Source of the DNA: a virus
Length of the DNA stretch: 50,637 nt
Virus record (IMG/VR): IMGVR_UViG_3300027800_000005
Strand: one strand, 5' to 3'
Shown: positions 20,458-41,178 of the stretch, piece after piece
Layout: each line of letters begins with the position of its first letter
Numbering within the stretch: the first letter of the stretch is position 1
Notes under the pieces: model-generated
What the model saw: only the letters and a program-made list of their open reading frames with translations
What the model was told of the DNA's origin: nothing
Databases searched by the model: none
Program-made: the position numbers and the translations under genes

Positions 20458-20463
20458 AGCATT

Positions 20464-21054: not shown

Positions 21055-21083
21055 TTGACAAGGCATTATATCTGTGATATAAT
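21055..21083 (+). promoter_or_regulatory. Consensus promoter P2.
   Basis: TTGACA 21055-60, 17-bp spacer, TG 21075-76, TATAAT 21078-83. A 7-bp hairpin at 21092-21110 begins 9 nt after the -10 element. Confidence 0.8.
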
Positions 21084-21130
21084 AGCTATAAGAGATGAGC
21101 AAATCGTCTCAAAATTAGGAGGTAGAAACC

Positions 21131-21424
21131 ATGACAATCAAAAATTTGACCATCAACAAACTCACCAATGCAGAGCTTGATGACTTGGGTTGCTTCGGGA
21201 TTGGTATTATGCTTTATGCGGGACAATTGAAAACAATGGTTAAGGGATTCAAAACTTGTAGCCTTGACGGTAACGGAAATATCTCGTTTGAGAACGAGAT
21301 GGAAGACTACAGACATGAGTTTATCAAGACGCTTGATGGATACGCATATCGTATTTACGACCAGATTAGGGGTGAATATTTCAAGCAAGTTCAACCCACC
21401 GAAGGATTGATATTTATTAGGTAA
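21131..21424 (+). CDS. Early hypothetical protein (97 aa), first cistron of ribozyme unit 1.
   Basis: RBS aggaggtagaaaccATG. The stop TAA at 21422-24 lies directly before hammerhead candidate 1. Confidence 0.7.
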   Translation: MTIKNLTINKLTNAELDDLGCFGIGIMLYAGQLKTMVKGFKTCSLDGNGNISFENEMEDYRHEFIKTLDGYAYRIYDQIRGEYFKQVQPTEGLIFIR

Positions 21425-21425
21425 A

Positions 21426-21481
21426 GCCGAAACCGGGGAAACCCGGTCTGCTGAGGAATAACTTCCCAGTACTGATGAGGC
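21426..21481 (+). ncRNA. Hammerhead ribozyme candidate HH1 (stem-II-open, type II topology). Predicted cleavage after C21448.
   Basis: GCC, GAAA (21429-32), stem III CCGGG[GAAA]CCCGG, UC, stem I (21449-71), CUGAUGA (21472-78), GGC. The full conserved core is present in the correct order. Covaries with HH2. Confidence 0.7.
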
Positions 21482-21508
21482 AGGTTAACAAATTAGGAGG
21501 TTGAAACT

Positions 21509-21640
21509 ATGGTATTCGCGATTTTGGTTATTGGCGGGTTGTGTTTTTGTCTTGGTATTTTATATCCATTGATAGCAATTATTGGGTATAAAATATTTGG
21601 TGGCAAGAAGTCTATTGCACAATATATCAAGACTTTGTAA
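21509..21640 (+). CDS. Small hydrophobic peptide (43 aa, not in the track).
   Basis: RBS aggaggttgaaactATG. Sequence MVFAILVIGGLCFCLGILYPLIAIIGYKIFGGKKSIAQYIKTL, with TAA at 21638-40. Confidence 0.55.
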   Translation: MVFAILVIGGLCFCLGILYPLIAIIGYKIFGGKKSIAQYIKTL

Positions 21641-21659
21641 AAAGCAGGAGGTAGAAACT

Positions 21660-21857
21660 ATGGTTCATTATAAATGTCAATTTTGTGGGCAAATGCAACA
21701 CTCCTCAAGCGAAGAAATGGAACAAGAAGGTTGTTTATACTGTGGCAGAATGGCAATAAAAATTGTCAAGGAACAAGACTACAAGAAGAGAATAAAACAG
21801 GAGGCAGAAACCAATGAAAATCTACGAAATAGTGGTTTGCTTAAGGTCGGGAACTAG
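21660..21857 (+). CDS. Zinc-ribbon protein (65 aa).
   Basis: RBS aggaggtagaaactATG at 21660 (the track start at 21582 is upstream of the RBS). CQFCG...CLYCG gives a CxxC-x17-CxxC pattern. Confidence 0.6.
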   Translation: MVHYKCQFCGQMQHSSSEEMEQEGCLYCGRMAIKIVKEQDYKKRIKQEAETNENLRNSGLLKVGN

Positions 21858-23145
21858 TAGTAAGGTTGCACTTGAAATTGTTGAGCAAAATACAAAATGT
21901 CACGAAACACTTCGTTTTCTTTGTAACCCATACATAAAGACAGGGTTGTGCCACGTAAAGGCACTTCATGAAGATTCTTTATTGTGCAGCGATTCGCAAG
22001 ACACCGACTATTTGGTAGAACTTCTTTTGGAGTATTTTTCAAGTTGTGGACCAGATGGTAACAGAGCTGAAAAAGAGGACTATGCAAAGACAATCTACGA
22101 ATACGGCCCGGATGATGAAGACTGGAAGTGGTTCGTTGAATTGGTTGCAACACACGGTAATAGTTCTGCATTTGGTGTAGGTCCACAAACATTAAGAAAG
22201 GCCGGCATTAATGTTCCTAGTTTTGGATGCCAATTGGGTGTTAAACTGCAAGATGTTGGTTCTGATTCTTGGCTTTGTACCAACGGCTACAGACAACATC
22301 ATTGGAGAATTACGGAGAAGATAGACGGAACTCGCAGATTGTTTATCAAGAATAAAGGCAAGGTTGAGGCATATAGTAGGAGTGGTAAAAAAGACGATAA
22401 ACTCAAACACATTACGGATTGGTTTGAGTCGAAAACAATTCCAGACAATAGGATTTACGATTGCGAATTAGTTGATGGTGATATGTATGACAACTGGAAA
22501 GAGGGTTACCAATCTTTTGAATTAAGAGCCAAGTCGATTGGTAAGGCCGCCAGAAAATCGAGCGACAACACATCGTTGATTGCAATATGTTTTGATTATT
22601 ATGACTTTGAAAAACCACATGACAACACAGTCATTCGTACTATTGAACTCAAGAGGATATTCAGAGAAAACCAACAGGATGGTCCAGTTCGACTTGTTAA
22701 GATATTTGGCAAGATGGATGGGTACGAGCGAGACAAACTGGATAGCACGCTCAAAACTGTGCTAGACCGCGGCGGAGAAGGCTTAATGCTTCAAGAACTT
22801 GGCAGTTCGTACGTTTTTGAGAGAACTCCAAACCTTATAAAAGTTAAACGACTGGAAGACTACACGGGAAAAATAGTTAAAGTCGTACCGGGAAGAATAG
22901 GAACGAGATTGGAAAATCTTATGTCTGCAATCCTTTGCGAAGTAGACGGTTGCGATAGTATGGTTTATGTCGGCACAGGACTTAGCGATTATGATAGAGA
23001 ATTATTTGCTAAGTATGCTGACGAACTTATCGGAGCTAAGGTTGAAATAGAGGCATTTTCCAAAACAATAAACAAAGACGGAAAAACATCATTGTGCTTT
23101 CCAGTGTTTAAGAGATGCCACCATAAAATATTTAAGGAGAGCTGA
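21814..23145 (+). CDS. ATP-dependent DNA ligase (nucleotidyltransferase superfamily) with an N-terminal extension.
   Basis: Motif I TEKIDGTR, motif IV GEGLMLQ, motif V LIKVKR. RBS aggaggcagaaaccaATG. Confidence 0.7.
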   Translation: MKIYEIVVCLRSGTSSKVALEIVEQNTKCHETLRFLCNPYIKTGLCHVKALHEDSLLCSDSQDTDYLVELLLEYFSSCGPDGNRAEKEDYAKTIYEYGPDDEDWKWFVELVATHGNSSAFGVGPQTLRKAGINVPSFGCQLGVKLQDVGSDSWLCTNGYRQHHWRITEKIDGTRRLFIKNKGKVEAYSRSGKKDDKLKHITDWFESKTIPDNRIYDCELVDGDMYDNWKEGYQSFELRAKSIGKAARKSSDNTSLIAICFDYYDFEKPHDNTVIRTIELKRIFRENQQDGPVRLVKIFGKMDGYERDKLDSTLKTVLDRGGEGLMLQELGSSYVFERTPNLIKVKRLEDYTGKIVKVVPGRIGTRLENLMSAILCEVDGCDSMVYVGTGLSDYDRELFAKYADELIGAKVEIEAFSKTINKDGKTSLCFPVFKRCHHKIFKES

Positions 23146-23146
23146 A

Positions 23147-23389
23147 ATGGAGAACAAAACATATTCTATCGGAGACACGCTGGCAGTTATGCGTGGTAAG
23201 AAGGCAGTATCATGCCAAGTTATTGAAAAAGGGATTGGCGAAACGAAGAATGGAACTACCATTACGTTTCAAGATGAACAGGTTATTTGGAGATTGGGGG
23301 CTAACAAGAAGTGGCCAAACTTTGTACACCAAGCATTCAGGGGAGAACTAGCCGAAAGGAATGATAACAATGCCGGAACAAAAACCTAA
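23147..23389 (+). CDS. Hypothetical protein (80 aa).
   Basis: RBS taaggagag. Tightly packed behind the ligase gene. Confidence 0.55.
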   Translation: MENKTYSIGDTLAVMRGKKAVSCQVIEKGIGETKNGTTITFQDEQVIWRLGANKKWPNFVHQAFRGELAERNDNNAGTKT

Positions 23390-23900
23390 AAAATTAGTTG
23401 GGTTCAGTGCAGAAAAAATATCAGAACGAGTTGCCAAAGAAGCTATTTTGATGGCATACGAATGTGAGAAGATTTCTGGACAAGAATTACTTAAGGCCGA
23501 TGAATACAAAAACAAAGCATATAAGTACCTCACAAACAAAAACCTGAAACACCTCGATGTAGAGGCTGCAGATAAAACTATAAGATTTCAGTCTGCAGAG
23601 AGAACTAACGTAACATATTTCCTTGATAAACTAAAGCAATCTTTGAGTATGCCTGTTCTACGTGAAGTTGTCATGAAGAAATACGAAGTCAAGGATATCG
23701 AGTTGCTCAAGGCTACAATGCAAAAATACAATGTTCCAGCAGATATTCTGAAAGATTGCTTGTCGATAACAGAAACTGTTGACAGAACAAGAATGGATGA
23801 ATTATTTAAAGCCGGACATATTACTATTGAACAACTGGAAGGTTGTTACAAACTGTCTACGAGCACATCATTAACATTAAAGGAGCTAGATAATAAATAG
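23370..23900 (+). CDS. Hypothetical protein (176 aa; alternative start at 23361).
   Basis: gaaagga lies 9 nt upstream of the ATG at 23370. No motif recognised. Confidence 0.55.
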   Translation: MPEQKPKKLVGFSAEKISERVAKEAILMAYECEKISGQELLKADEYKNKAYKYLTNKNLKHLDVEAADKTIRFQSAERTNVTYFLDKLKQSLSMPVLREVVMKKYEVKDIELLKATMQKYNVPADILKDCLSITETVDRTRMDELFKAGHITIEQLEGCYKLSTSTSLTLKELDNK

Positions 23901-23912
23901 GAGGCAGTAGCC

Positions 23913-24857
23913 ATGACTGATTATAATTCACCAGTGTTTATGGCAAAGGTTCTTGATGCATATAATATAGACTTTACGCAAAACAAGGTTGTTTGTCCTT
24001 TTCATGGTGACGTAAACCCCAGTATGAGTATTGACTTGGCAAAAAGCAGAGTATATTGTTTTGGGTGTCAAAAATCATATAGTGCTACACAATTCATAGA
24101 GGCTGCCGAACCAAAGATGAATAGACTACAAGTTTACAAGCGTATGGCAGAGATAGAAAACGGCATCAAGATTGACCTTAAACCACAACATATCAGAAAC
24201 AATAGTGATTGTGATTTCGTACAGTTGAGAATACAAGCAGAAGATTACTACTATAATCTACCAAAAACTGATTGGGCACATGGTGAGTGGACAGAAGAGC
24301 TTGACTATATGACCAAACGTGGTTTTACTACAGAGATTCTGAATAAATGTGGAGCTAAACTAAACTACAATGGCTGGTACCCGATTATTTTTCCTATAAT
24401 GGATAATGGAAAATTTAAAGGTTGGGTTTGTAGAACTACCAGAAAAGATATAGAGGCAAAAAGAAAGTACCTATACAATACTGGGTTCAGACGTTCTACG
24501 TGCGTGTGCGGGCGATACAACAGGGACAACCAGCTAATCGTAGTCGAGGGGTATATGGATATGCTTAAACTAAGGCAAGCAGGACTGACAAATGTTGTTG
24601 CATTGCTTGGTTGGAAGGCTAGTCAAGAGCAGGTTCAGATGATTAAAACTGTAGGCATTAAACACATTATTTCTGCATTGGACAATGACGAGAGTGGAAT
24701 TAAGGGCGATGCACATTTACGGACTTTAGGATTCGATTCAGTAGTGCGATGGCAGTTTGGTGCAGGCCATAAAGACCCTGGTGACCAGACAGCTAGCGAA
24801 ATAAAAAATATTTATAAAAAACTAAAAATAAGTGTTGACAAAGCAAATCGGATGTGA
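23913..24857 (+). CDS. dnaG: DNA primase (CHC2 zinc finger + TOPRIM).
   Basis: CPFHGDVNPSMSI....VYCFGCQ zinc finger. TOPRIM motifs VVEGYMD and DNDESG. Confidence 0.85.
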   Translation: MTDYNSPVFMAKVLDAYNIDFTQNKVVCPFHGDVNPSMSIDLAKSRVYCFGCQKSYSATQFIEAAEPKMNRLQVYKRMAEIENGIKIDLKPQHIRNNSDCDFVQLRIQAEDYYYNLPKTDWAHGEWTEELDYMTKRGFTTEILNKCGAKLNYNGWYPIIFPIMDNGKFKGWVCRTTRKDIEAKRKYLYNTGFRRSTCVCGRYNRDNQLIVVEGYMDMLKLRQAGLTNVVALLGWKASQEQVQMIKTVGIKHIISALDNDESGIKGDAHLRTLGFDSVVRWQFGAGHKDPGDQTASEIKNIYKKLKISVDKANRM

Positions 24858-24863
24858 TATAAT
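24835..24863 (+). promoter_or_regulatory. Consensus promoter P3, overlapping the primase 3' end.
   Basis: TTGACA 24835-40, 17-bp spacer, TG 24855-56, TATAAT 24858-63. An 8-bp hairpin at 24872-24894 begins 9 nt after the -10 element. Confidence 0.8.
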
Positions 24864-24915
24864 TGATATAGAGATTGAGGATTGCACTCAATCTACTACG
24901 TAGGAGGTAGAAACC

Positions 24916-25203
24916 ATGAAAATTTACAAACAAGCTGTCATCGAGCTGGACTTTCCAGAACGTCCAGAACTTCATTCCATTGTTACCTTTACCTTGACGG
25001 ACTCAAAAGCGTTTCAGTACGGAAACCAGACTATCTTGCTGGTTGACCAGGTTTGCGAAATGCCGGATTTTAATGAACAGAAAGCAATCGACACGCGGTA
25101 TTCGGACATTAGCAATTTTGATAAACTGTGCTTGGATTGGTTGAAACACGAAAAGCTCAAGCACACGGCCAAAGTTCTGATTAGCTCCAAAAAGCTCTGG
25201 TAA
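24916..25203 (+). CDS. Early hypothetical protein (95 aa), first cistron of ribozyme unit 2.
   Basis: RBS aggaggtagaaaccATG, identical to that of 21131. Confidence 0.7.
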   Translation: MKIYKQAVIELDFPERPELHSIVTFTLTDSKAFQYGNQTILLVDQVCEMPDFNEQKAIDTRYSDISNFDKLCLDWLKHEKLKHTAKVLISSKKLW

Positions 25204-25218
25204 AATCGAATAAGCAAA

Positions 25219-25272
25219 GCCGAAACTGGGGGTAACCCCAGTCTACTGGATATATACCAGTACTGATGAGGC
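25219..25272 (+). ncRNA. Hammerhead ribozyme candidate HH2 (stem-II-open). Predicted cleavage after C25243.
   Basis: GCC, GAAA (25222-25), stem III CUGGGG[GUAA]CCCCAG, UC, stem I UACUGG[AUAUAUA]CCAGUA, CUGAUGA (25263-69), GGC. Confidence 0.75.
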
Positions 25273-25293
25273 AGAAAACAGGAGGTTGAAACT

Positions 25294-25470
25294 ATGACAC
25301 ATGCAGTAGGAACTAGGACAAGCGTTCGTGGTAACATGAGGGTTTATCTGGCAATAAAAAAACAAATTGACACATTGAGATACCTTGGTATTAAGCTGGG
25401 GAAAACCTGGTTTATACATATTTATTTTAAGGGAGGCTACCTACTATGGCAGTTAAAGTCGGGTTGCTGA
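25294..25470 (+). CDS. Small hypothetical protein (58 aa, not in the track).
   Basis: RBS aggaggttgaaactATG, identical to those of 21509 and 40732. Open to TGA at 25468-70, overlapping the next gene start. Confidence 0.45.
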   Translation: MTHAVGTRTSVRGNMRVYLAIKKQIDTLRYLGIKLGKTWFIHIYFKGGYLLWQLKSGC

Positions 25471-26234
25471 GTGCAATCAAAAAAGACGTCGAGAAAACTG
25501 GTTCTAGCAGAGGCAAATTCTTCTATGTCAAGAGCGGAGCTAAAGCGAGAATTCGTTTCTTGGAGGACATGGACAACGGCAGGGTTGTGCATATGCATGA
25601 CAGATGGGACCCTCAACTGAAGGTACCGTGTGAGAAGAACCGAGACGAAGACGCAGAATGCCGTTATTGCGGCGTTGAAGGAGTTAGAAACAGAGATACC
25701 TATGCATGGTCGGTATGGGACTATGATGCGAACGAAGTCAAGATATTCATGTACCCGGCTAATCAGTGTACACCGGTACCTGGATTGGTTGCATTGTACG
25801 AGACGTACGGCACTATCATTGACAGAGACTTCAGTGTTTCGCGGTCTGGGAATGGTACGGCTACATCGTATAGCCTGATACCGCTTGACAAGACAAAATT
25901 CAGAAACGAAAACGCCAAACCGTTTACTGACAAACTGTTTTGGAAGGCAATCAACGACGGCTATCCCGCACCTGATGGCGAAAAGGCCGAGGTTGAGGAT
26001 GATGAAGATGAAAAACCTGCAAAGGTAAAACCGGCTCCTGATAAAACCGAAAAGGTTCTCGCAGATGCCGAGGAAACCAGCTACGAAGATATGACTCCGA
26101 AGGAATTATATTCGTTGTGCAAGGTTCGTGACATCTTAGTAAAGACTCAGATGGAGGCAGAGTACTACATCAAAAAGCTTGAGAAATATGACCTTGAACA
26201 CGGTGACGATGAGTTCTGGGGAGACGACGAATAG
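25446..26234 (+). CDS. T4 gp32-like zinc-containing single-stranded DNA-binding protein.
   Basis: The spacing H-x13-C-x9-C-x2-C (HMHDRWDPQLKVPCEKNRDEDAECRYCG) reproduces the gp32 His64/Cys77/Cys87/Cys90 zinc-ligand spacing. Acidic C-terminus EFWGDDE. Confidence 0.6.
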   Translation: MAVKVGLLSAIKKDVEKTGSSRGKFFYVKSGAKARIRFLEDMDNGRVVHMHDRWDPQLKVPCEKNRDEDAECRYCGVEGVRNRDTYAWSVWDYDANEVKIFMYPANQCTPVPGLVALYETYGTIIDRDFSVSRSGNGTATSYSLIPLDKTKFRNENAKPFTDKLFWKAINDGYPAPDGEKAEVEDDEDEKPAKVKPAPDKTEKVLADAEETSYEDMTPKELYSLCKVRDILVKTQMEAEYYIKKLEKYDLEHGDDEFWGDDE

Positions 26235-26272
26235 CAATATTCGATTTGAAAAACAAGAAAGGCAGATGACCT

Positions 26273-26704
26273 ATGGCAACAGAATTGAAAATCATTATGG
26301 AAAAGAAACCGGAGAATGCAAAGGAGCTAGGTGAACTGATTACTAAGATTACCAATCAGTTTATCAAAGAGTACGGAGACGAAAAATCGCACAATGACAA
26401 CTTGTTCGTTTTGTGCGGTTGTCAGAATGGAGATACTATTGAAGATGGCAATAATGTGGCCACACCTATGGATATAGCGCAGATTATGTTTTGTAAACAT
26501 GGTGTGGCAATTGATGTTTTGCTTCAGTGTATCGGTGCATGGAGAAAAACATCACCTATGTTGTATCTGGACTTTTTGGCTAAGCTCTTTTCTTTTCTTG
26601 ATAAAGAAACCTCGACAGAAGAAAAAATGTTTTCTGCGATTTTGAGAGGTGACGACAAGAGAGGAATATCGGAGCTTATTGATAATTTGCTGGAAGGAAA
26701 GTAA
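26273..26704 (+). CDS. Hypothetical protein (143 aa).
   Basis: ORF in the operon context. No motif recognised. Confidence 0.5.
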   Translation: MATELKIIMEKKPENAKELGELITKITNQFIKEYGDEKSHNDNLFVLCGCQNGDTIEDGNNVATPMDIAQIMFCKHGVAIDVLLQCIGAWRKTSPMLYLDFLAKLFSFLDKETSTEEKMFSAILRGDDKRGISELIDNLLEGK

Positions 26705-26708
26705 CCCA

Positions 26709-28987: not shown

Positions 28988-29436
28988 TGATAGTTTTTGA
29001 AGGTTTTGACAAGAGTGGCAAAACATCCATTATCAAGGAGTTTAATAAAGCTACAAATTACGAACACGTAGTTTTTGACAGAGGACCTTGGAGTTGCATG
29101 TTTTTTGACAAAGTTATTCGTGGTGACAATTATATGTATTGTGTTCATCAGCAAAATGCTAAAATATTATCGCTCAGCATAGAGTTGATAGTATTTTGTA
29201 TGTGTCAAAAAGAACTTGCAATTGAGAGATTGTCAAATGCAGACGAAGACATTCCTACATACTTTGATGATTACGAGAAAAATTTATCAACCTATATGGA
29301 GTTGCTTGAAAAAAACCATTATGGAACCGATGTTTTGTTTTTGCCAACCGATTGCACCACAATTAAAGGCAGCGTAGAACACATATTGAACTACATCAAT
29401 GCTAAGAAGGCGGCGAATAAGGATGGGGTACTTTGA
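28984..29436 (+). CDS. dNMP / thymidylate kinase-like P-loop kinase.
   Basis: IVFEGFDKSGKTS P-loop in the Tmk-type context. ATGA overlap with the ThyX-like gene. Confidence 0.6.
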   Translation: MMIVFEGFDKSGKTSIIKEFNKATNYEHVVFDRGPWSCMFFDKVIRGDNYMYCVHQQNAKILSLSIELIVFCMCQKELAIERLSNADEDIPTYFDDYEKNLSTYMELLEKNHYGTDVLFLPTDCTTIKGSVEHILNYINAKKAANKDGVL

Positions 29437-32173
29437 CCTACACAGGCATACTGAGTTTTCATCTTTTGATGGTTTTGGAAAATCATCCGAACTCGCAATA
29501 ATCGCCAAAAACCTTGGGCAGACTGCACTTGGTATTTCAGACCATGGCAATACCCACGGATTGGTTAAGCATTGGCAGGAGTGTTTGAAGAATGACATTA
29601 AGCCAATTCTTGGTGTTGAAAGCTATTTTATGCCAAAGTATCAGGAGAAACACAGGGGCTGGCATTTGTGTATGTTTGCTAAAAACATTGCCGGTTATGA
29701 GAACTTGAATAGAGTTCAAACATTAGGAGATGCTAGAAAGTACTACAATCCAATTATTTTGTTTGATGACATAGCTGAAAATCATGATGGGTTGATAATA
29801 TCTACGGCTTGCGTTGGTTCATTCTGGGGAGATGCAGTAAAACATAAACGTACTGATGCTGCGGTAAGGTTGCTTTCAATGTTCAAAGAATTGCTAGGCG
29901 ATGATTTCTATGTTGAGATACAACCTTATACTATTTCTGTGAATGGTTTGCAAGAATATGTAAATACTACTATGGAACGTATAGCAAAAGAACTTGGTAT
30001 TCGTTGTATACTGACATCAGATAGTCACAGAGGCCTAAGGGATGATTTCCCTTCGTACCTTAAACTGCATGAAATAGCCGGACATGATTTGGAAGATATA
30101 ACTAAAACATACAAACATCGTTATATGCCATCCGAATCAGAAATAATCCAAAGGTACGTTAAGATGCACGGTAACAAAGTGTTGGCCGAGGAATACGTTG
30201 AGAATATAGGAATACTTGAGGCTTCGGTTGATAAAGATATTCTTGGACAACTTTCGCTTGGCATGCCAGAGTTTGATAAAGAAAAGAGTAGCAAAGAACT
30301 ACTTCGTAGTATGGCAGTTAAAGGTTTAAAAGAAAAAGGCAAATGGAACGAGGAATACAAAGCTCGATTAAAATGCGAGATGGAAATTATTGAGTACCAT
30401 GGCTTTAGTGATTATTTCCTTATGGTCAGAGATTATACCACTTATGCAAAGACACATGGAATAGCAGTTGGCCCGGGCAGAGGTTCTGCTTGTAATTGCT
30501 TAGTCTCTTGGGCAGTGGGAGTTACAGATGTAGACCCAATAAAATTTGGACTGGATTACCACAGATTCATCAGAAAAGACAAAAAGAAAATGCCAGATAT
30601 TGACCTTGACTTTCAAACGAGCAGGCGAGAAGAGGTTATCGAATATCTTGTCGGTAAATATAAAGATAATAGTGCACAGATTGTGAGCTATGGGTTGTAT
30701 AAACCAGACAATTTAATCAATGACCTTGCAAAGGTATGCGGACTCAATTCAACCGGTGATATTCCAGACGAAATTAAGCAAGACAGAAAGCAGAAGATTG
30801 ATGAAATTAAACAGTACCTTCACCAATTTACAAACGACCAGGCCGGTACTATTGATACTGAAACTTTGTTTAAGAACAAGAAGACTGCAGACTACAATAG
30901 CAATTATGATGATATTATAACCCACTATACAAAGTTGTTCAGAAAAGTTAGGTATGTTGGAACTCACGCTGCGGGTGTGGCAGTTGTATCATCGAATATT
31001 TTGCAATACAGTGCATTAAAAACAAAGGACGATAAAGGCAGAAATAAACGGTATATTGCCTATGACCTTGTTGATGCAGAGTCCATAAACATTATGAAAT
31101 TTGACATACTCGGGCTAAACACAATGGAGTCGTTATCTCAATTAAGGGAACTATCAGGCAATCCACCCGATGTAGACGTAATGCTTTCAGATGATGAGAT
31201 ATGGAACAGATTCAGGATTGGAGACACTGACGGAATATTTCAACTTGAAAGTCCTACGGCAAAGGCAATTTTACAATCTATTAAACCAGACAATTTCGAT
31301 GATTTATCTGCATGCAGTTCTATTAACAGACCTGGTCCATTATCGTTGAAAACTCACGAGAAATATGCAGAGAACAAAGAGAAGGCAAAACAAGGTTTAA
31401 TCACTTTTGATGGACCGTATACTCGGTTTTTGAAAGACACTTATGGTACCATGATTTATCAAGAGCAGGTTCAACTGATAGCAACTGAGGTTGGAGGGAT
31501 GAAATGGGAAGATGCAGACAAGATTATTAAACTTGGTTCTGGAGGTGCTAAAACTACAGCGGCTATCCAATACCAGAAACAACTTAAGGCTTACGAAGAA
31601 GAGTTTTGCAAGAACGCCAAGAAGTTCGGTATTGGTCGAGAAGAGGGTGGGCATTTGTTTAACGAGTTTTTTAACTATTCATTCAACAAAGGCCACAGTA
31701 CTGGGTACAGTTTAATAAGCTTGGAAGAAATGTGGCATAAGGTTCATCATCCACTTGAGTTCTGGACAGTAAAAATAAAGAATGCTGGCAGAGAGGACCA
31801 AGTCAGAACTTTCCTCGAAAGGGCAGTTGTTGATGGTTGTGTAATACTTTTGCCAAATGTAAACTATAGCAAATTCTATTCTATCAGATATATAGAAGGC
31901 GAACCCGGATTGCAGCAGGGTTACAGAGGGATAAAGAACGTTGGTGATAAAGCCTCGGAATACATAAGCGAAGAGAGGCAGAAAAATGGACCGTTTCATT
32001 CAATAGAAGAATTTACTGAGAGGTGTAAAAGCCGATGCGTTACATCAAGAGTTATCAGTGCATTGCTTGAGAACGGAGCATTGGACTTTGACAAAAAGAA
32101 CTATATACAGAGGGTAAAGCAATACAACAGAACTTTGTATATGAAGGCATTAAACAGTCGTGGTAATAATTAA
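29423..32173 (+). CDS. dnaE: DNA polymerase III alpha (DnaE-type, PHP domain), short form (~916 aa).
   Basis: PHP motifs DLHRHTEFS and ISDHGN.HG. Polymerase core GPGRGSA and PDIDLDF, plus finger motifs NKGHS. Confidence 0.85.
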   Translation: MGYFDLHRHTEFSSFDGFGKSSELAIIAKNLGQTALGISDHGNTHGLVKHWQECLKNDIKPILGVESYFMPKYQEKHRGWHLCMFAKNIAGYENLNRVQTLGDARKYYNPIILFDDIAENHDGLIISTACVGSFWGDAVKHKRTDAAVRLLSMFKELLGDDFYVEIQPYTISVNGLQEYVNTTMERIAKELGIRCILTSDSHRGLRDDFPSYLKLHEIAGHDLEDITKTYKHRYMPSESEIIQRYVKMHGNKVLAEEYVENIGILEASVDKDILGQLSLGMPEFDKEKSSKELLRSMAVKGLKEKGKWNEEYKARLKCEMEIIEYHGFSDYFLMVRDYTTYAKTHGIAVGPGRGSACNCLVSWAVGVTDVDPIKFGLDYHRFIRKDKKKMPDIDLDFQTSRREEVIEYLVGKYKDNSAQIVSYGLYKPDNLINDLAKVCGLNSTGDIPDEIKQDRKQKIDEIKQYLHQFTNDQAGTIDTETLFKNKKTADYNSNYDDIITHYTKLFRKVRYVGTHAAGVAVVSSNILQYSALKTKDDKGRNKRYIAYDLVDAESINIMKFDILGLNTMESLSQLRELSGNPPDVDVMLSDDEIWNRFRIGDTDGIFQLESPTAKAILQSIKPDNFDDLSACSSINRPGPLSLKTHEKYAENKEKAKQGLITFDGPYTRFLKDTYGTMIYQEQVQLIATEVGGMKWEDADKIIKLGSGGAKTTAAIQYQKQLKAYEEEFCKNAKKFGIGREEGGHLFNEFFNYSFNKGHSTGYSLISLEEMWHKVHHPLEFWTVKIKNAGREDQVRTFLERAVVDGCVILLPNVNYSKFYSIRYIEGEPGLQQGYRGIKNVGDKASEYISEERQKNGPFHSIEEFTERCKSRCVTSRVISALLENGALDFDKKNYIQRVKQYNRTLYMKALNSRGNN

Positions 32174-33948: not shown

Positions 33949-33957
33949 GGAGTTGAT

Positions 33958-34215: not shown

Positions 34216-34902
34216 ATGCCTGCAACTAAAAACATAGAGGGGATATGTGGTAAACTCATAAACGACCAATATCAATATCGAACTTTATGTTTAGGTATAG
34301 ACCAGGCCTACGGAGATACTGGGATTGCATTGGCCGGTATTGACCGCAAAGGTAACATTGACATAATAACTTGTGGAAGTGTAGCACCTTTGCCAAACCA
34401 ACTTAAAGTAGAATATAGGGCATCTGTATGCCAAGCAATACAAAGGATAGTCAAAAAGTATAGATGTTACGGTGACGAGTTTTTTGCAGTATGCGAGTCC
34501 GTTAGGGTGCATACGGAAGGTGCAGTAAGCATTAGGAACCACTTGAACTGGGGAGCATTGCAAGGTAGCATGCACGACTGTTTATATAATTTACATGGAA
34601 TAACATTACGTACAGTAGATACTCGAGCCTGGAAGTCAGCAGTGGTTGGTACATCAAAGCCTGCATTAAAAGCACCAAGAGGGGTAGACCCGAAAAAGTG
34701 GCCAACAATACAATGCATTATGTATAAGTATGATATTTCAAAACAAAAGCTAACAAAGGTAATGACTCCTCGCAGCAAGAGCTATACGTGGGTAGATGAG
34801 AATGGCAACAAATGTACGTACAACAGCGACATTTCTGACGCTTGCGGTATAGCAATATACGGACTAGTACGCCCGCTAAACAAACTGCAGATGGCACCGT
34901 AA
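34216..34902 (+). CDS. RuvC-like Holliday junction resolvase.
   Basis: N-terminal LGIDQAYGDTGIAL (first catalytic Asp) and C-terminal SDISDACGIAIYG (last catalytic Asp). Confidence 0.55.
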   Translation: MPATKNIEGICGKLINDQYQYRTLCLGIDQAYGDTGIALAGIDRKGNIDIITCGSVAPLPNQLKVEYRASVCQAIQRIVKKYRCYGDEFFAVCESVRVHTEGAVSIRNHLNWGALQGSMHDCLYNLHGITLRTVDTRAWKSAVVGTSKPALKAPRGVDPKKWPTIQCIMYKYDISKQKLTKVMTPRSKSYTWVDENGNKCTYNSDISDACGIAIYGLVRPLNKLQMAP

Positions 34903-34931
34903 AATAATTATAAAAACTTTTGTAAAATCTA

Positions 34932-35843: not shown

Positions 35844-35850
35844 AATATAG

Positions 35851-35879
35851 TTGACAAAGTACTCCAGATATGATACAAT
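35851..35879 (+). promoter_or_regulatory. Consensus promoter P5.
   Basis: TTGACA 35851-56, 17-bp spacer, TG 35871-72, TACAAT 35874-79. Confidence 0.75.
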
Positions 35880-35930
35880 AGCTACATAGAGACCAACCAT
35901 GCGTTCTCAAAAATTTAGGAGGTTGACACC

Positions 35931-37325
35931 ATGACTATCACACATTCCAAACTCACATCGGACAAATCAAACGTTACCTTACCTGAACTCCAAGGCAGCG
36001 CAAAACAAATTCATTGGGCAGAGTCAATTCGCAGATACTTTCTGATGAACCTGACCAACTTTGAGGACAGCGGATTCAACACAAGAGATACGAAGAATTT
36101 TGTCGATGCAATCCAGACGATGCTTGCTAACAATCCTCTTGCTAAGACTTGGATTGAAAAATACCAGGGTTGCATACCGGAAAAGGCAATTACTACAGTT
36201 CTTGAATATTATCGCGAAACCAAAACTGAGGCTGAAGTGATTATCGAAACTACATGCAAAAAGGGAATTGTTTCTGAGTTATTGATGGCCAAGAAAAATG
36301 GCGAGGGAATTTGCGAGGTTACATACAAGAACAACAACAACGGGAAAGTTACAACTAGTATCAGAAAACAAAATAAGGTTAGTTCTTTTCCAGGGGAAAT
36401 ACTCGTAAACGTAAACACTGACGTTTTTGCATTCATATACAATGGCAACCTCGCTGACAATATCCATTGGGTAGGAAATTACAAACAAAATATCTGGTCG
36501 GAAAATATTACCGAAGAACAGAAAGCGGTTCTTGGCGACCAAGAGAAATTACCGGCACTTGAAGAAACCCAGGGTGAGATATACCACGAGACATTTTCAA
36601 AAATTCTTGCATGCGTACAATCTGACATTCCAGTGTACCTGGTTGGACCTGCAGGTTCTGGTAAAAACCATACACTTGAACAGATTGCTAAGAAGCTCAA
36701 CCTGAAGTTCTTTTTCACCAATAGCATTCAGCAAGAACATAAGCTGACTGGATTCATTGACGCTGGTGGTACCTATCACGAAACAGAGTTCTACAAAGCG
36801 TTTACAAACGGTGGATTATTCTTCTTGGACGAGATGGACGCTAGCATTCCTGAAGTTCTGGTTCTACTCAATGCTGCTATTGCAAATGGTTACTTTGAAT
36901 TTCCTAACGGACGCGCAGAAGCTCACATCGATTTTAGAGTGGTGGCTGCCGGAAATACCATGGGTAGTGGAGCAGACGAACAATACACCGGAAGATTGGT
37001 ACTTGACCAAGCAACACTTGACAGATTCTGCGTAATCGAGTTTGACTACGACATCAGAATTGAGATGAAGCTCGCAAACAATAACATCGAACTGGTTACT
37101 TTCGTACGGGACTTGAGGGTTCAATCGAACAGACTCGGCATCAGAACCACCTATTCATATAGATGCATAATGTCGGCTACGAAGCTCGATGGACTTTTGA
37201 GTATTGACGAAATCATGAAGATTGCAATAGTAAAGGGAATTGATAAAGACACACTTAAAACATACAAAGCTGACGAAACAAACAGATACGGAAAAGCTCT
37301 GGCTAAACTCCAGAGAGTTTCGTAG
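35931..37325 (+). CDS. AAA+ ATPase (AAA_5 / MoxR-CobS-like) with a ~220-aa N-terminal extension.
   Basis: Walker A GPAGSGKN, Walker B LFFLDEMD, and sensor region VVAAGNT...LDQATLDRF. Confidence 0.7.
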   Translation: MTITHSKLTSDKSNVTLPELQGSAKQIHWAESIRRYFLMNLTNFEDSGFNTRDTKNFVDAIQTMLANNPLAKTWIEKYQGCIPEKAITTVLEYYRETKTEAEVIIETTCKKGIVSELLMAKKNGEGICEVTYKNNNNGKVTTSIRKQNKVSSFPGEILVNVNTDVFAFIYNGNLADNIHWVGNYKQNIWSENITEEQKAVLGDQEKLPALEETQGEIYHETFSKILACVQSDIPVYLVGPAGSGKNHTLEQIAKKLNLKFFFTNSIQQEHKLTGFIDAGGTYHETEFYKAFTNGGLFFLDEMDASIPEVLVLLNAAIANGYFEFPNGRAEAHIDFRVVAAGNTMGSGADEQYTGRLVLDQATLDRFCVIEFDYDIRIEMKLANNNIELVTFVRDLRVQSNRLGIRTTYSYRCIMSATKLDGLLSIDEIMKIAIVKGIDKDTLKTYKADETNRYGKALAKLQRVS

Positions 37326-37339
37326 GGAGGAGAATTAAA

Positions 37340-37852
37340 ATGAGTGAAAACAATAATTGCAATCACAAATTTATGACATTTGGAATTGATGGTGGCGAAA
37401 TGACAGACAAAAGCAAGCTGTGGCAAACCAATGAGTATACACACCATGCCGAACACTCTCAATGGGACGGTAGGAAATACTTTACGCTATGCGACCATAA
37501 AGGTGTTGTGATATTGCCACACATATACGATTCAAAACGTGAAACCATTGACATGATTGTAGATGCTCACAATAAATGCTTTGCCGAGCCCTCCAACCCT
37601 CCCCTGACCGAAGAACAAATCAGGGCGATGGTGGGGATGCCGGTGTGGGTTGAGTTTGATGAACCAAAAGAGCGTGGGTATAAGGTGATTTATGCCATAA
37701 AGGACTATACTGATTCAGACGAAAAAGACCACGATGTACACTATATCACCGTGAAATTCACAGACTGTTGCGTCGCTGATATTTGCGACATAAACCATCC
37801 GTATTTTACAGACAGAATCTACGCCCACGAACCGGAGGCAACCAATGAGTAA
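37340..37852 (+). CDS. Hypothetical protein (170 aa).
   Basis: RBS tagggaggag. No motif recognised. Confidence 0.55.
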   Translation: MSENNNCNHKFMTFGIDGGEMTDKSKLWQTNEYTHHAEHSQWDGRKYFTLCDHKGVVILPHIYDSKRETIDMIVDAHNKCFAEPSNPPLTEEQIRAMVGMPVWVEFDEPKERGYKVIYAIKDYTDSDEKDHDVHYITVKFTDCCVADICDINHPYFTDRIYAHEPEATNE

Positions 37853-39029
37853 GATTGCATTATTGCTTGGTTTAGGGTTGTGTAATGGCGGTGCTCAAAC
37901 ATTAGCAAATGAGTGGAGTATAACACTTTCAGAGATTGGTATTGAACATAAGGTTTTCTATTATTCAGGGAAGGCATATGGAAATGAATGCAACAGTGGG
38001 AGAATTGCAGAACATTTTGTTGAGTTTGATAATTTTGTCGAATTAAAAAAAGAGATAGAACAATACGATGTGTGCTTTGTTTTTAGTACACCACTTATTA
38101 ACGACAAAAACCATCAAGATTTTGTTGATATGTTTATCGGACTCAATACCTATAAAATTGTATGCATAATTGATAGGAATAGAAACCCATTAAAATTAAA
38201 ACGGTGGAGCGAAGACGTTGTTAAGTCTGCAGACATTGTTTTTCATATAAGTGGAGAAGAACATAGTGGTTATAAATATATAGCCGAATGCAACAAAAAT
38301 ACTTTTCATGCAGACTTGAACTTGTATAATTGGTTGCCTTTTGAAAATATAGCTTTTGCAGACAAAAGGGGCTACATGAAAATTTCATTTATTGGTCGCT
38401 ATGTGGCACTTAAAGGGTATAAACAACTCATTAAAAATTATGATATGCTCCCAAAGAAATTTGCATATACCATTGAAGGTGGTTACTTTAAGTATCAAGA
38501 GCCAAACAGCATTTCATCTACTATAGGTATTTTAGCAGACATATGCAAAGATATTAAAACAAAAGAGCTAAAAGACGGCATTGTTATTCATTCAGACTAC
38601 AGTAAGTATTATGAAGATATTCTACAAAGAGGACTAATACATTTATATCCAAAGTATAAAAGAGAAGAAATGTTTGGTAGGGTAGCAACATCGCTTTTTA
38701 CGATTTATCCATATTGCAAAAAGCCAGGAATGTTTAGGGGTGCGATTGAATATACCGTTTTGGAGTCCATTCAGTTCGGTACTCCATGTATCTTGTCGAA
38801 TGATTATGGTATTGATTGTTATGTAAATGGCGTTCCTCTAATCGAACAAGATTGCGGCTTAATATTTTATGATAGCTTTACAGAATTGGATGATAAGATT
38901 CGTGAGTACTGCAGGAACTACGACAAGAACGTTGCTAAGATGCAGAAATGGTTTAGCGAGAATTATACTGCAAAAGAGAAATTGAAGAAAGTATTGCAAA
39001 TAATCAGAAAAGAAAAGGTTGACAAATAA
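37845..39029 (+). CDS. GT-B fold glycosyltransferase (GT4-like).
   Basis: The C-terminal region RGAIEYTVLESIQFGTPCILSNDYG resembles the GT4 E-x7-E / nucleotide-sugar binding region. Rossmann-like N-terminal half. Confidence 0.55.
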   Translation: MSKIALLLGLGLCNGGAQTLANEWSITLSEIGIEHKVFYYSGKAYGNECNSGRIAEHFVEFDNFVELKKEIEQYDVCFVFSTPLINDKNHQDFVDMFIGLNTYKIVCIIDRNRNPLKLKRWSEDVVKSADIVFHISGEEHSGYKYIAECNKNTFHADLNLYNWLPFENIAFADKRGYMKISFIGRYVALKGYKQLIKNYDMLPKKFAYTIEGGYFKYQEPNSISSTIGILADICKDIKTKELKDGIVIHSDYSKYYEDILQRGLIHLYPKYKREEMFGRVATSLFTIYPYCKKPGMFRGAIEYTVLESIQFGTPCILSNDYGIDCYVNGVPLIEQDCGLIFYDSFTELDDKIREYCRNYDKNVAKMQKWFSENYTAKEKLKKVLQIIRKEKVDK

Positions 39030-39047
39030 CTTAGTTTTTGATATAAT
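39019..39047 (+). promoter_or_regulatory. Consensus promoter P6, overlapping the glycosyltransferase 3' end.
   Basis: TTGACA 39019-24, 17-bp spacer, TG 39039-40, TATAAT 39042-47. Confidence 0.75.
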
Positions 39048-39084
39048 GGTACTATGAGAAGGCGATTGGGGTTGGTAGTTGCTT

Positions 39085-39597
39085 ATGAAAAGGTCTGGTA
39101 GGTTTTATCGAAAGAATGAAAGTGAGGTTATGAAACAACTTGGTTTTCAACCAACACCAAACAGCGGCTCAGGGTGGATATTCAAAGAGGATGGACAAAC
39201 CGAACATACTATTGCTCAGCTAAAATCGTCTGATGCCGAAAGTATTCGGGTAGGTTTATCAGATATTCACAAACTCGAAGAAAATGCGATTATATCGCAC
39301 AAGAACCCTGTATTTGTAATTCAGTTTTTGAAAACAAATGATGTGTTTATTCTTGTTAGACCGACAGAAGAAATTCTTGGGGTCATTCACAAGCCCATTT
39401 CGTATTCACCTGTTGAACTATACGGAAACGAGAATATAAACCCATTAACTTTGCAATCAGATGCAACCGGGAGACAACAGTTCAATCAAGGCAGAGAACT
39501 GAATTATAAACAGAAAGCAGAAGACTACAAAAGCAAACAAAAAGAATTGAACCTAAAGTTAGGTAAAAAGAAGGAGGGTAATAACCCATGGAAATGA
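39085..39597 (+). CDS. Hypothetical protein, possibly PD-(D/E)XK-like.
   Basis: 170 aa. The NSGSGW.FKEDG.....AQLKS pattern is loosely resolvase/nuclease-like. Weak RBS, start uncertain. Confidence 0.45.
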   Translation: MKRSGRFYRKNESEVMKQLGFQPTPNSGSGWIFKEDGQTEHTIAQLKSSDAESIRVGLSDIHKLEENAIISHKNPVFVIQFLKTNDVFILVRPTEEILGVIHKPISYSPVELYGNENINPLTLQSDATGRQQFNQGRELNYKQKAEDYKSKQKELNLKLGKKKEGNNPWK

Positions 39598-39968
39598 AAA
39601 CTAAACTCATCGGAAAATACGTAGGACATAGCGTTAAAAACAATCAAATAGTTGATTGGAACCTGGCTTGCCAGTATGCACAGTTACCAGAGGTTGTGAG
39701 ATTTACATTAGGTTTAAACGTTGATTGTGAACTCGCAGTTTTGTTTGAAGATTCAGAAAAACCACAGAAACTCGGAACATTCCGAATAAGTGGGATATCT
39801 ATTGACAGAGAAGGCGACAGTAAAATTAAGTTTAATAGCATGACAGAATACATCAACCTTGATATTTTGAATGCTATGTCGAGCCATGGTGATGAAGATA
39901 TTACTATATATGCTAAATATGTTATTGAGAGTGGAGAGGACGGTGGCGGTGATGCCGAAGTCGACTAA
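39588..39968 (+). CDS. Hypothetical protein (126 aa).
   Basis: RBS aaggaggg. Confidence 0.55.
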   Translation: MEMKTKLIGKYVGHSVKNNQIVDWNLACQYAQLPEVVRFTLGLNVDCELAVLFEDSEKPQKLGTFRISGISIDREGDSKIKFNSMTEYINLDILNAMSSHGDEDITIYAKYVIESGEDGGGDAEVD

Positions 39969-40179
39969 CAAACATACATATCAACCTTTGTTTGAGGTTG
40001 CAGATGGCGAGAGCAATGAGATTCATTTTGCATTGAGGGATGACGGAGTCTATATTGTTAGCCGTTGCCAGATACTAAAGGGCGGAGAAAAGATTTATAT
40101 GAGGAGCAGTGTGACGTTAAAGAGAGACGTTGCTATTGCCTTGGCAAACAAGATTTTAGATACTTTCAAAATAAACTAG
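39952..40179 (+). CDS. Hypothetical protein (75 aa).
   Basis: The ATG at 39952 overlaps the upstream gene end. The longer track ORF from 39871 lies inside the upstream gene. Confidence 0.45.
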   Translation: MPKSTNKHTYQPLFEVADGESNEIHFALRDDGVYIVSRCQILKGGEKIYMRSSVTLKRDVAIALANKILDTFKIN

Positions 40180-40191
40180 GAGGCAGAAGCA

Positions 40192-40638
40192 ATGTCAAGG
40201 GGTTTTCTACACAAGGTTGATTATGGCAATCCCGAGAACAGAACGATAAAAGTAAAGATTGATGGTTTAATAGCTGGATATACTTACGAACAAATTTCAC
40301 GGTGGGTTGATAAGTGGACAGACCCGATTCAGTCGATTAGAAATAGCTGGAAGTATCAAGAATGTTATAGAGAGAATTATATGCACATGATGGAGTACAT
40401 TCCAAAAAGGTGTATTTCAAGACTCAGAGTCGAAGCCATTAAAAAAGAGGATATGGTACAGACCGAGAGGGCAAAATATCTTATGCAGGGGTTATCTGAT
40501 TGCATAGATATGTTTAGTAAGATACAGAACAATATGTCACCAGATGATGAGTACTACCAAACTTTTGTGTGGGAAACCAAAGTATTGTTTTTCTCGTTCT
40601 ACGACTTCTGCGAACCAAGGCAGGCAGAAATAAAATAA
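40192..40638 (+). CDS. Hypothetical protein (148 aa).
   Basis: RBS aggaggcagaagcaATG. Confidence 0.6.
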   Translation: MSRGFLHKVDYGNPENRTIKVKIDGLIAGYTYEQISRWVDKWTDPIQSIRNSWKYQECYRENYMHMMEYIPKRCISRLRVEAIKKEDMVQTERAKYLMQGLSDCIDMFSKIQNNMSPDDEYYQTFVWETKVLFFSFYDFCEPRQAEIK

Positions 40639-40657
40639 TATTTTGCAAAAATAAAGG

Positions 40658-40686
40658 TTGACAAAGTGTTTGGTATGTGATACAAT
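40658..40686 (+). promoter_or_regulatory. Consensus promoter P7.
   Basis: TTGACA 40658-63, 17-bp spacer, TG 40678-79, TACAAT 40681-86. The hairpin AGACAG/CUGUCU at 40695-40712 begins 9 nt after the -10 element. Confidence 0.8.
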
Positions 40687-40731
40687 AACTATAGAGACAG
40701 GAGATACTGTCTACTACAGGAGGTTGAAACT

Positions 40732-40893
40732 ATGAAACTACGTAAGATGAAGATTGGCCAACTTAGAGAGATGGCTGCATCACTAGGAGCCGACAAAAAC
40801 AAATTGTACGGCACCTCAAAAGATTCAATCATTTTAACGATTACGCACCTTATGCTTACCGTTAAGTGCAAGGAGGTTGAGAGCAATGGATGA
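40732..40893 (+). CDS. Small protein (53 aa, not in the track) with a helix-extension-helix / SAP-like N-terminus.
   Basis: RBS aggaggttgaaactATG. Sequence MKLRKMKIGQLREMAASLGADKNKLYG.... Confidence 0.55.
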   Translation: MKLRKMKIGQLREMAASLGADKNKLYGTSKDSIILTITHLMLTVKCKEVESNG

Positions 40894-41065
40894 CATGAAA
40901 GAAATTAAGTGTTGCATTTGTGGCACGAAGTTTATTGGTTGGGGTAATAACCCGGAACCAGTCAAGAAAAAAGGCAGATGCTGCAATAATTGCAATCGAG
41001 ATTTTGTTATCCCGGCCAGGATTGCACAGTTGATACAACAAGGAAAAAGACAGGGTAATCCTTAA
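40886..41065 (+). CDS. Zinc-ribbon protein (59 aa).
   Basis: AGGAGG lies 9 nt before the ATG at 40886. CCICG...CCNNC gives a CxxC...CxxC pattern. Confidence 0.55.
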   Translation: MDDMKEIKCCICGTKFIGWGNNPEPVKKKGRCCNNCNRDFVIPARIAQLIQQGKRQGNP

Positions 41066-41068
41066 AAA

Positions 41069-41143
41069 CCCCCTGATGAGCTGATGAGATTTCAGCGAAA
41101 CCTAACCAATTCGTTCCTTCCCATCGAACTGGTTAGGTAGGGG
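41069..41143 (+). ncRNA. Hammerhead ribozyme candidate HH3 (stem-I-open, type I topology). Predicted cleavage after A41139.
   Basis: CCCC, CUGAUGA (41073-79), stem II GCUGA[UGAGAUU]UCAGC, GAAA (41097-100), 12-bp stem III (41101-41137), UA, GGGG (41140-43). Confidence 0.6.
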
Positions 41144-41178
41144 CATGACCCCATTAAAAACTTAAGGAGGAAACCTAA

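Follow-up and report, generated by a model that had tools for sequence, protein, structure and literature searches.

The IMG/VR virus record IMGVR_UViG_3300027800_000005 was analysed as one window of 50,637 nucleotides (nt; ~50.6 kb), in which all plausible genes lie on the + strand. A packaging, head, tail and lysis module (terS at 42358, terL at 43641, portal gene at 46081) continues into positions 1-21000, and the replication module begins at 21055. Three sense-strand hammerhead ribozymes lie among these genes, HH1 and HH2 of type II and HH3 of type I, each at the end of a short cassette that consists of a strong promoter, a leader hairpin and one or two small open reading frames (ORFs). 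We think it somewhat better than an even bet that the ribozymes would form 3' ends without termination for these promoter-proximal cassettes, leaving the downstream RNA protected and well translated. All features below are on the + strand.

The sequence TTGACA-N17-TAnAAT occurs nine times in the window (at 1929, 21055, 24835, 35851, 39019, 40658, 46010, 48001 and 48528), always on the + strand, against 0.22 copies expected by chance, and at all nine sites a TG precedes the -10 (extended -10). These predicted promoters are of the sigma-A type. Three of them head the cassettes: the unit 1 promoter (21055-21083; TTGACA-N17-TATAAT with a TGTG extended -10, a 12/12 consensus match), the unit 2 promoter P3 (24835-24863), which overlaps the 3' end of the primase gene and whose position is kept in five relatives, and the unit 3 promoter (40658-40686), also a consensus match. 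An intrinsic terminator signal was not above shuffled expectation in the window, and no intrinsic terminator follows any of the three cassettes.

Behind each of the three promoters a hairpin begins at the 9th nt past the -10, that is at about +2/+3 if transcription is assumed to start 7 nt after the -10. With stability expressed as a z-score relative to shuffled sequences, these are GAGAUGA-GCAAA-UCGUCUC in unit 1 (21092-21110; -9.1 kcal/mol, z -6.3), AGAUUGAG-GAUUGCA-CUCAAUCU in unit 2 (24872-24894; z -5.1) and AGACAG-GAGAUA-CUGUCU in unit 3 (40695-40712; z -3.6). The original prediction had these promoters, hairpins and spacings right, as it did the ORFs and ribosome-binding sites (RBSs) behind them, but it took the hairpin for a part of the ribozyme unit, and the same +9 hairpin also follows four promoters that have no ribozyme, those at 1929 and 46010 and, in a weaker form, those at 35851 and 39019. 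The arm sequences vary between promoters while the pairing is kept, and the leader at 6411 of a related locus, L153 (loci compared with the window are given L numbers), matches the P3 leader except for a compensatory change of G-C to A-U. Because of this change and of its presence at ribozyme-less promoters, the hairpin is a leader feature that is under selection and general in this phage, and it does not mark out the ribozyme units. We also considered whether the leader hairpins could be put-like antitermination RNAs and rejected this, as they are too small and the window lacks terminators.

The cassettes themselves are small. Unit 1 encodes a 97-aa ORF (21131-21424), unit 2 a 95-aa ORF in a variable cargo slot (24916-25203), and unit 3 a 53-aa ORF (40732-40893) followed by a 59-aa Cys-rich, zinc-ribbon-like ORF (40886-41065) that is 59% identical to an ORF of L153 (7276-7461). 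Each cassette ORF has an AGGAGG RBS. The RBS of the 97-aa ORF lies in an extended 17-nt module, AGGAGGTAGAAACCATG (21117-21133), one of just seven copies of AGGAGGTNGANACNATG in the window. Promoter leaders precede four of them, HH1 and HH2 directly precede one each, and the seventh is at 21646. The copy after HH1, AGGAGGTTGAAACTATG, serves a 43-aa hydrophobic ORF (ATG at 21509; module and ORF together 21495-21640), which is the first cistron downstream of HH1 and leads into an ATP-dependent ligase-type gene (21814-23145) and a DnaG-type primase gene (23913-24857). The copy after HH2 serves a 58-aa ORF (ATG at 25294; together 25280-25470), which is followed by an SSB-like gene (25446-26234) and, further along the same replication module, by a DnaE-like polymerase gene (29399-32173). 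HH3 is followed by an RBS (AAGGAGG, 41164-41170) and a 226-aa acidic ORF (ATG at 41179; together 41162-41859) heading the block that leads to terS and terL. Unit 3 thus precedes packaging genes, so that the labels 'early' and 'replication genes downstream', which had been applied to all three units, are wrong for it.

The 97-aa ORF belongs to a family of ~100-aa proteins with the N-terminus MxIxNETIxKLTxxELNDLG, encoded in the window and in three other loci (L131, 1028-1318; L221, 1501-1800; L222, 634-933) always by the first gene behind a strong promoter. Its AlphaFold2 (AF2) model is confident (predicted local distance difference test, pLDDT, 91.8) and had no structural match in PDB or BFVD, and a word-indexed homologue search with the ORF returned itself only. 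For the 95-aa ORF the AF2 model is poor (pLDDT 55) and no homologue was found. None of the cassette ORFs matched Pfam, PHROGs or NCBIfam, and a PDB sequence search gave nothing useful; the host-takeover or anti-defence role first suggested for the cassette genes is therefore a guess. An assignment of the 97-aa ORF as an EF-hand or leucine-rich-repeat (LRR)-like protein was rejected, the matches being weak and at motif level only. The adjoining small ORFs at 20950-21045 and 21131-21424 carry DxDGNG and DGNGN loops of EF-hand- or dockerin-like appearance, with weak PDB matches to calcineurin B (E ~0.02).

HH1 (21425-21489) and HH2 (25218-25280) score 41.3 and 40.1 bits against the Rfam model Hammerhead_II (RF02276), whose gathering threshold is 37. 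We recognized a type II core by CUGAUGA, GAAA, the A15.1-U16.1 pair and an NUH triplet, together with capped stems I and III and an open stem II; both ribozymes have this core, as GAAAC...GUC↓U...CUGAUGA with a GCC/GGC stem II. HH1 consists of stem II (21426-28 with 21479-81), a stem III hairpin (21433-21447) and a stem I hairpin (21449-21471); the stem I hairpin of HH2 lies at 25244-25262. Folded alone, both have the hammerhead three-way junction as their minimum free energy (MFE) structure, and cleavage would fall after C21448 in HH1 and after C25243 in HH2. HH1 can also form a pseudoknot in which loop I pairs with the 3' tail (UAAC 21459-62 with GUUA 21484-87), at a position that covaries: in 36 of the 42 distinct members of the HH1/HH2 subfamily, which come from viral as well as bacterial contigs, loop I is complementary to the base triplet that follows GGCAG, through 10 different triplets, compared with 12.5 in permuted controls. 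A scan of the whole window by Rfam E-value found no further ribozyme.

Type II motifs below or outside the Rfam model were seen in two other loci. L154 has, at 95-160, a type II hammerhead with a GUA cleavage site and a 5-bp pseudoknot (UGACC:GGUCA) that falls under Rfam gathering; it is placed after an ORF of an 88-aa family and upstream of the terS region. The Agathobaculum phage AB434P3 (L122, OP172634.1) has at 34846-34905 a type II motif that resembles a hammerhead but is mismatched at pair 10.1-11.1, behind a TTTACA-N17-TATAAT promoter and two small ORFs, which is absent from the record's annotation.

HH3 (41069-41143) has a full canonical core in a different topology. Its stem I pairs CCCC (41069-72) with GGGG (41140-43) in 4 bp, C3-A9 (CUGAUGA) occupies 41073-41079, stem II spans 41080-96 as GCUGA/UCAGC (5 bp), G12-A14 lies at 41097-41099 (GAAA, 41097-41100), and stem III spans 41100-41138 with 13 bp, nine of them contiguous in the descriptor used. 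Both longer stems, II and III, are strong. Cleavage would occur after A41139 (GUA↓GGGG). A type I descriptor matched the window at HH3 alone, at a background of ~1 match per 1000 random windows. The claim that all three ribozymes close the same architecture needs to be divided accordingly: the motifs are real and sit in a recurrent place, but HH3 is type I and HH1 and HH2 are type II.

Rfam scores for HH3 are sub-threshold, at 19.1 bits for Hammerhead_3 (a partial match) and 18.9 bits for RAGATH-1-hammerhead; with a gathering threshold of 56.3 for the latter, assignment to RAGATH-1 was rejected. A pattern derived from HH3 retrieved 50 stretches from IMG/VR. The family has 50 distinct members, every one with a paired stem II, for which 12 arm combinations are used; stem III occurs in 45 sequences, stem I covaries, and loop II reads UGARAWU as a family trait. 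Members in eight scanned loci (for example six in L198, three in L188 and two in L156) are all below Rfam thresholds, and since no scanned member reaches them, the Rfam models under-call this family. In L156 (IMG/VR 3300029095_000009) a Pistol ribozyme at 984-1054 (47.7 bits) lies <1 kb from two HH3-family hammerheads, so that several ribozyme classes share one phage gene array. Around HH3 itself, UCCUUAA (41059-41065), which holds the stop codon of the 59-aa ORF, is complementary to UUAAGGA (41162-41168), which overlaps the Shine-Dalgarno (SD) sequence of the 226-aa gene; such a long-range helix could enclose HH3 and link termination, cleavage and downstream initiation.

The predicted products of all three ribozymes have structured ends. 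As the original prediction described, each 5' fragment would end in the stem III hairpin and each 3' fragment would begin with a hairpin, according to folding predictions. In HH1 and HH2 the first base of the 3' fragment is the start of the stem I hairpin. In HH3 the 5' GGGG can leave stem I and pair with the CCCC nine bases on, giving an alternative hairpin GGGG-CAUGA-CCCC (41140-41152) that re-uses the 3' strand of stem I. This is a feature of the family: in 44 of 51 members a hairpin of this kind starts at one of the first three bases of the 3' product, with varying loops and arms and a mean z of -2.5.

To see what other phages keep at these positions, we collected relatives via primase (50-72% identity) and TerL (65-72%). 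They retain gene order and the promoter that overlaps the primase gene end. The first ORF behind this promoter is absent in L124 and L125 and is mutually unrelated in L126, L127, L128, L131 and the window. Across the relatives compared, where a small ORF is present behind the promoter, a structured element always separates it from the conserved gene's RBS. In the P3 slot this element is HH2 in the window, an intrinsic terminator in L126 (6623-6642), L127 (11156-11173) and L131 (5068-5087), and a strong hairpin in L128; L126 has a further terminator after the first ORF behind a promoter (2224-2245). Plain GC-rich hairpins fill the slot in L124, L153, L128, L131 and L221. The comparison extends to orthologous genes. 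Of the 97-aa-family ORFs, the one in the window precedes HH1, those in L131 and L221 precede plain hairpins and the one in L222 precedes a terminator; after the 88-aa-family ORF there is a type II hammerhead in L154 and a GC-rich hairpin without a T run in L124 and L153. At the level of sequence, then, ribozyme, terminator and hairpin are equivalent occupants of this slot even behind orthologous ORFs.

In L153 and L001, as in the window, the zinc-ribbon ORF and the MAxNYQA gene flank a hammerhead, which is a homologue of HH3. The L153 homologue (7462-7517) lies between the 59%-identical zinc-ribbon ORF and a homologue of the 226-aa gene, and the L001/L204 homologue is canonical and lies 310 nt behind a promoter; the proteins flanking the junction have diverged to 37-59% identity. 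A search for the synteny of promoter, ORF, hammerhead and conserved gene in related phages had been suggested, and it bore out for HH3, in L153 and L001, but not for HH1 and HH2, which are absent from six loci. The proposal that the ribozymes uncouple the stability or dosage of the cassette from that of the genes behind it is made plausible by relatives in which terminators or stable hairpins hold the same slot, though its 'replication genes' do not describe what lies behind unit 3.

In the window the cleavage sites lie 365, 380 and 453 nt past a -10. For HH1 and HH2 this is the first gene junction behind the promoter, for HH3 the second. The association of hammerheads with promoters in this genome has P ~0.015 when counted by gene junctions and 7e-4 when measured by distance, for three cases. 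All three promoters that precede small accessory ORFs have a hammerhead; the other six, each with a large gene directly behind it, have none. The distance from stop codon to ribozyme is 1-2 nt for HH1, 14-16 nt for HH2 and 3-4 nt for HH3. For 167 type II hammerheads of phages, the median distance is 2 nt from the end of the upstream frame to the ribozyme and 24 nt from the ribozyme to the next start codon with an SD sequence, so that tight spacing is general for this class and may reflect compact genomes only; gating of the ribozyme by a terminating ribosome, as had been proposed, is possible. Clear cases of the promoter-ORF-hammerhead order are present in the unrelated contigs L143, L148, L093 and L120.

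Dense arrays with a hammerhead after each small ORF were seen in L198 (six sites), L013 (eight sites), L188 and L025. The same ~30-nt RBS block follows each hammerhead of L198, and no L198 or L188 copy reaches Rfam gathering.

From the motifs, their positions, the covariation of their families and the equivalence of the slot, we infer cleavage in vivo, defined transcript ends and an effect on stability, by the following route. Two type II hammerheads and one type I hammerhead would punctuate long, terminator-free transcripts, each standing at the 3' end of a cassette whose one or two small and mostly variable genes lie between a strong promoter and a conserved gene. Self-cleavage would give the mini-mRNA a defined 3' end that keeps the stop codon, and its stem III hairpin and 2',3'-cyclic phosphate would act as a barrier to 3' exonucleases. 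RNA polymerase would meanwhile continue into the essential genes. On the downstream RNA the 5'-OH would be buried in a hairpin, stem I for HH1 and HH2 and the refolded GGGG/CCCC for HH3, with a strong RBS 11-23 nt later. This layout would be that of the primary transcripts, with their 5' hairpin at +2/+3 followed by AGGAGG; because a hairpin and then the same strong RBS recur, the ribozyme-made 5' ends would copy the primary ones. In Firmicute mRNAs, 5'-terminal stem-loops and strong SD sites stabilize against RNase J1. The net effect would be that cassette and downstream operon are uncoupled in stability and translation while transcription is not attenuated. A broader proposal, which we make tentatively and hold to be distinctly less probable, is that in this clade hammerheads, plain hairpins and terminators are interchangeable 3'-end modules, and that the two products of cleavage are built to look like natural transcript ends: the 3' end through stem III, and the 5' end through a conserved cap hairpin, formed in type I by refolding of a stem I strand, followed by a leader-type RBS.

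Several observations weigh against 3'-end formation by the ribozymes as we read it. At the HH1 and HH2 positions, no hammerhead was found in six syntenic loci by Rfam or regular-expression search, which rules out conservation of these two ribozymes in the relatives and makes them dispensable there. HH2 is among the six members of its subfamily without a loop I/tail pseudoknot, its best complementarity being 1 nt; since loss of the pseudoknot, a contact present in the majority of type II ribozymes, lowered the rate 20- to >100-fold in one construct (PMC3088659), HH2 may be slow or may use another tertiary contact. HH3 has weak points in a stem I of only 4 bp and a rare A17, and in a wider sequence context its MFE structure is a competing fold. 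Its L153 homologue carries U15.1-A16.1 where A15.1-U16.1 is near-universal, and may be inactivated, impaired or an unusual tolerated variant.

Beyond this genome, most hammerheads occur in arrays, in which two to eight ribozymes bracket single small genes, as Perreault et al. described (PMC3088659), and do not stand behind promoters. By a strict promoter definition the promoter-ORF-hammerhead order was found in 4 of 152 phage cases. Under a relaxed definition, a consensus-like promoter was present ≤700 nt upstream in ~12% of cases for 151 type II hammerheads and in 4.7% for control ORF ends; this enrichment (2.8-fold, p = 4e-4) is confounded by the promoter density of early regions. As a general rule across phages, the arrangement is weakly supported.

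The main rival to 3'-end formation with a protected downstream RNA, and one we judge unlikely, is that the ribozyme acts as an attenuator: its 5'-OH end would invite 5'-3' decay of the RNase J1 type, with a possible torpedo effect, and downstream expression would be lowered. The 5'-OH product of glmS in B. subtilis is degraded by RNase J1, a Bacillus precedent that would predict destabilization and so speaks against our reading; terminators, which lower downstream expression, also occupy the same slot in L126, L127, L131 and L222. The ends predicted here are, however, the opposite of a good 5'-exonuclease substrate, since the downstream products begin with a flush or refolded hairpin with a strong RBS immediately behind it. 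Moreover, the ligase, primase, SSB-like, DnaE-like polymerase and terminase genes have no closer consensus promoter, and heavy destabilization would therefore be costly.

Equally improbable in our judgement is that the hammerhead is baggage of moron-like cassettes with which it moves, or a recombination linker that marks a gene-shuffling boundary, with little regulatory effect. This would account for the non-homologous ORFs in the P3 slot of the relatives and the absence of unit 2 from L124 and L125, for the patchiness of hammerheads among close relatives, and for phages with arrays of three to eight hammerheads, each flanking one small gene and then followed by the same RBS block. It sits less well with intact cores and stems that show compensatory changes, or with the retention of HH3 at one junction while the flanking proteins diverged as described. 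That the slot always holds some structured 3' element further argues for selection on the function rather than on the element itself.

The units could also be no units at all, and promoter, leader hairpin and ribozyme merely independent neighbours in promoter-rich regions of small genes; this we consider still less probable. The hairpins at ribozyme-less promoters fit such a view, as do the scarcity of hammerheads with a nearby consensus promoter in other phages and a junction-based P of just 0.015 for only three cases. Against it stand the three-of-three and none-of-six distribution of hammerheads over promoters with and without small accessory ORFs, the retention of the order promoter-ORF-hammerhead-conserved gene in L153 and L001, and the four unrelated contigs with the same arrangement. 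Circularization or splicing by an RtcB-type ligase, joining the 5'-OH and 2',3'-cyclic phosphate ends of the 3.8-kb HH1-HH2 segment, has the end chemistry alone in its favour and is very improbable: a scan of the proteins showed no RtcB-like gene, the ligase encoded behind HH1 belongs to the ATP-dependent DNA-ligase type, and HH3 lacks a second ribozyme to act with. Perreault et al. raised this possibility in 2011 and found no such products (PMC3088659).

The phage is uncultured and of a gut type, and the same contig is present in a JGI metagenome. The closest cultured relatives are Agathobaculum and Clostridium phages with <50% identity in the DnaE polymerase, and no Rfam hammerheads were found in these nearest cultured relatives. 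A megablast search of 20000-26000 against GenBank phages gave no match, and single-protein scans of IMG/VR returned 0 loci for the ligase query and 1 locus for the 226-aa ORF query. The window has no tRNAs. The ribozyme subtype of HH1 and HH2 is also present in assemblies of Ruminococcus, Subdoligranulum, Lachnospiraceae, Roseburia and other Bacillota. Given this distribution and the nearest cultured relatives, the host is likely of the Clostridia type.

Two further features of the window lie outside the cassettes. A match to the GP20-b RNA (RF03003) at 2048-2107 falls just below threshold (33.8 against 36.2 bits) and is placed between the promoter at 1929, which has a long leader hairpin, and a scaffold-like ORF (2125-2742). 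GP20-b passes the threshold in L153 (16898-16956) and L154 (9141-9200), upstream of PF06810 scaffold genes, and because those copies exceed it, the copy in the window is probably real. Between 47478 and 49336 lie three paralogous ORFs with the common N-terminus (M)AELEGRWVTMNGAKVFIS. Consensus promoters of their own (48001 and 48528), with short leaders that lack a hairpin, precede two of these ORFs.

The idea that phage hammerheads process long transcripts is not new. Perreault et al. proposed that long phage transcripts are cut by clustered hammerheads into single-gene or operon-length mRNAs (PMC3088659), and a 2019 review considered processing of polycistronic transcripts by hammerheads to be suggested, with more work needed (PMC6765202); the general notion in the original prediction fits this standing hypothesis of the field. 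Like the prophage clusters, the window has sense-strand type I and II hammerheads between small phage genes of inconstant identity, and HH1 shares the loop I/3'-tail pseudoknot of the type II ribozymes described there, unlike HH2; ribozyme activity was assayed in that work (PMC3088659), whereas the ribozymes of the window are predicted from sequence. Unlike those clusters, the cassettes described here have one ribozyme each, a promoter in place of a second ribozyme on the 5' side, and a slot that is interchangeable with terminators or hairpins in relatives. In haloviruses HF1 and HF2 the ribozyme HHphage lies upstream of an early helicase operon, with a mapped 5' end near the cleavage site (PMC3088659). 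It resembles the window in its place, a few nt ahead of where the first ORF of an early polycistronic transcript begins, and differs in belonging to an archaeal virus, in its variant core and in having no upstream small-gene cassette described. What is new here is the equivalence of terminator, hairpin and ribozyme and the pattern of end mimicry; the ribozymes belong to known classes in a known kind of context.

Three other kinds of element are comparable in part. Phage morons, reportedly defined by Hendrix and colleagues, are promoter-gene-terminator units inserted between conserved genes. The cassettes likewise have their own strong promoter and a small, variable accessory ORF between conserved genes, and L126, L127, L131 and L222 show the full promoter-ORF-terminator form. 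Unlike morons, the units of the window have a ribozyme in place of the terminator, with no intrinsic terminator after the ORF, and they are not transcriptionally autonomous, because the essential genes downstream have to be served by that promoter too. The aprE and ermC leaders, the cryIIIA STAB-SD and phage SP82 are examples of 5' stabilizers built from a stem-loop or a strong SD; with these Firmicute systems the window shares a hairpin a few nt from the predicted 5' end, followed by a very strong SD, at primary and ribozyme-made ends alike. It differs from them in that a 5'-OH end is not the substrate studied there, and in that the 5' ends here are predicted. Synthetic insulators of the RiboJ type, said to have been described by Lou et al. 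in 2012, are engineered from a type III satellite-RNA hammerhead and placed in the 5' untranslated region. As in RiboJ, a hammerhead upstream of the RBS would trim a variable 5' context and leave a hairpin and a standard RBS, here the 17-nt module found after HH1, HH2 and promoter leaders; unlike RiboJ, the hammerheads of the window are natural, of types I and II, and lie between cistrons.

The role of the hundreds of bacterial and phage hammerheads is a standing question in the field. This clade offers a natural comparison, in which a ribozyme, a plain hairpin or a terminator occupies one gene slot, sometimes after the same orthologous gene. It also yields rules that can be applied to any dataset, namely a stop codon a median of 2 nt before the ribozyme, a start codon a median of 24 nt after it and a conserved 5' hairpin on the 3' product. 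Since a populous family of type I hammerheads in phages is missed by Rfam thresholds, annotation pipelines under-report its ribozymes. If the broader proposal of interchangeable 3'-end modules is true, it would provide a concrete and general function for phage and bacterial hammerheads: the formation of mRNA ends without termination.

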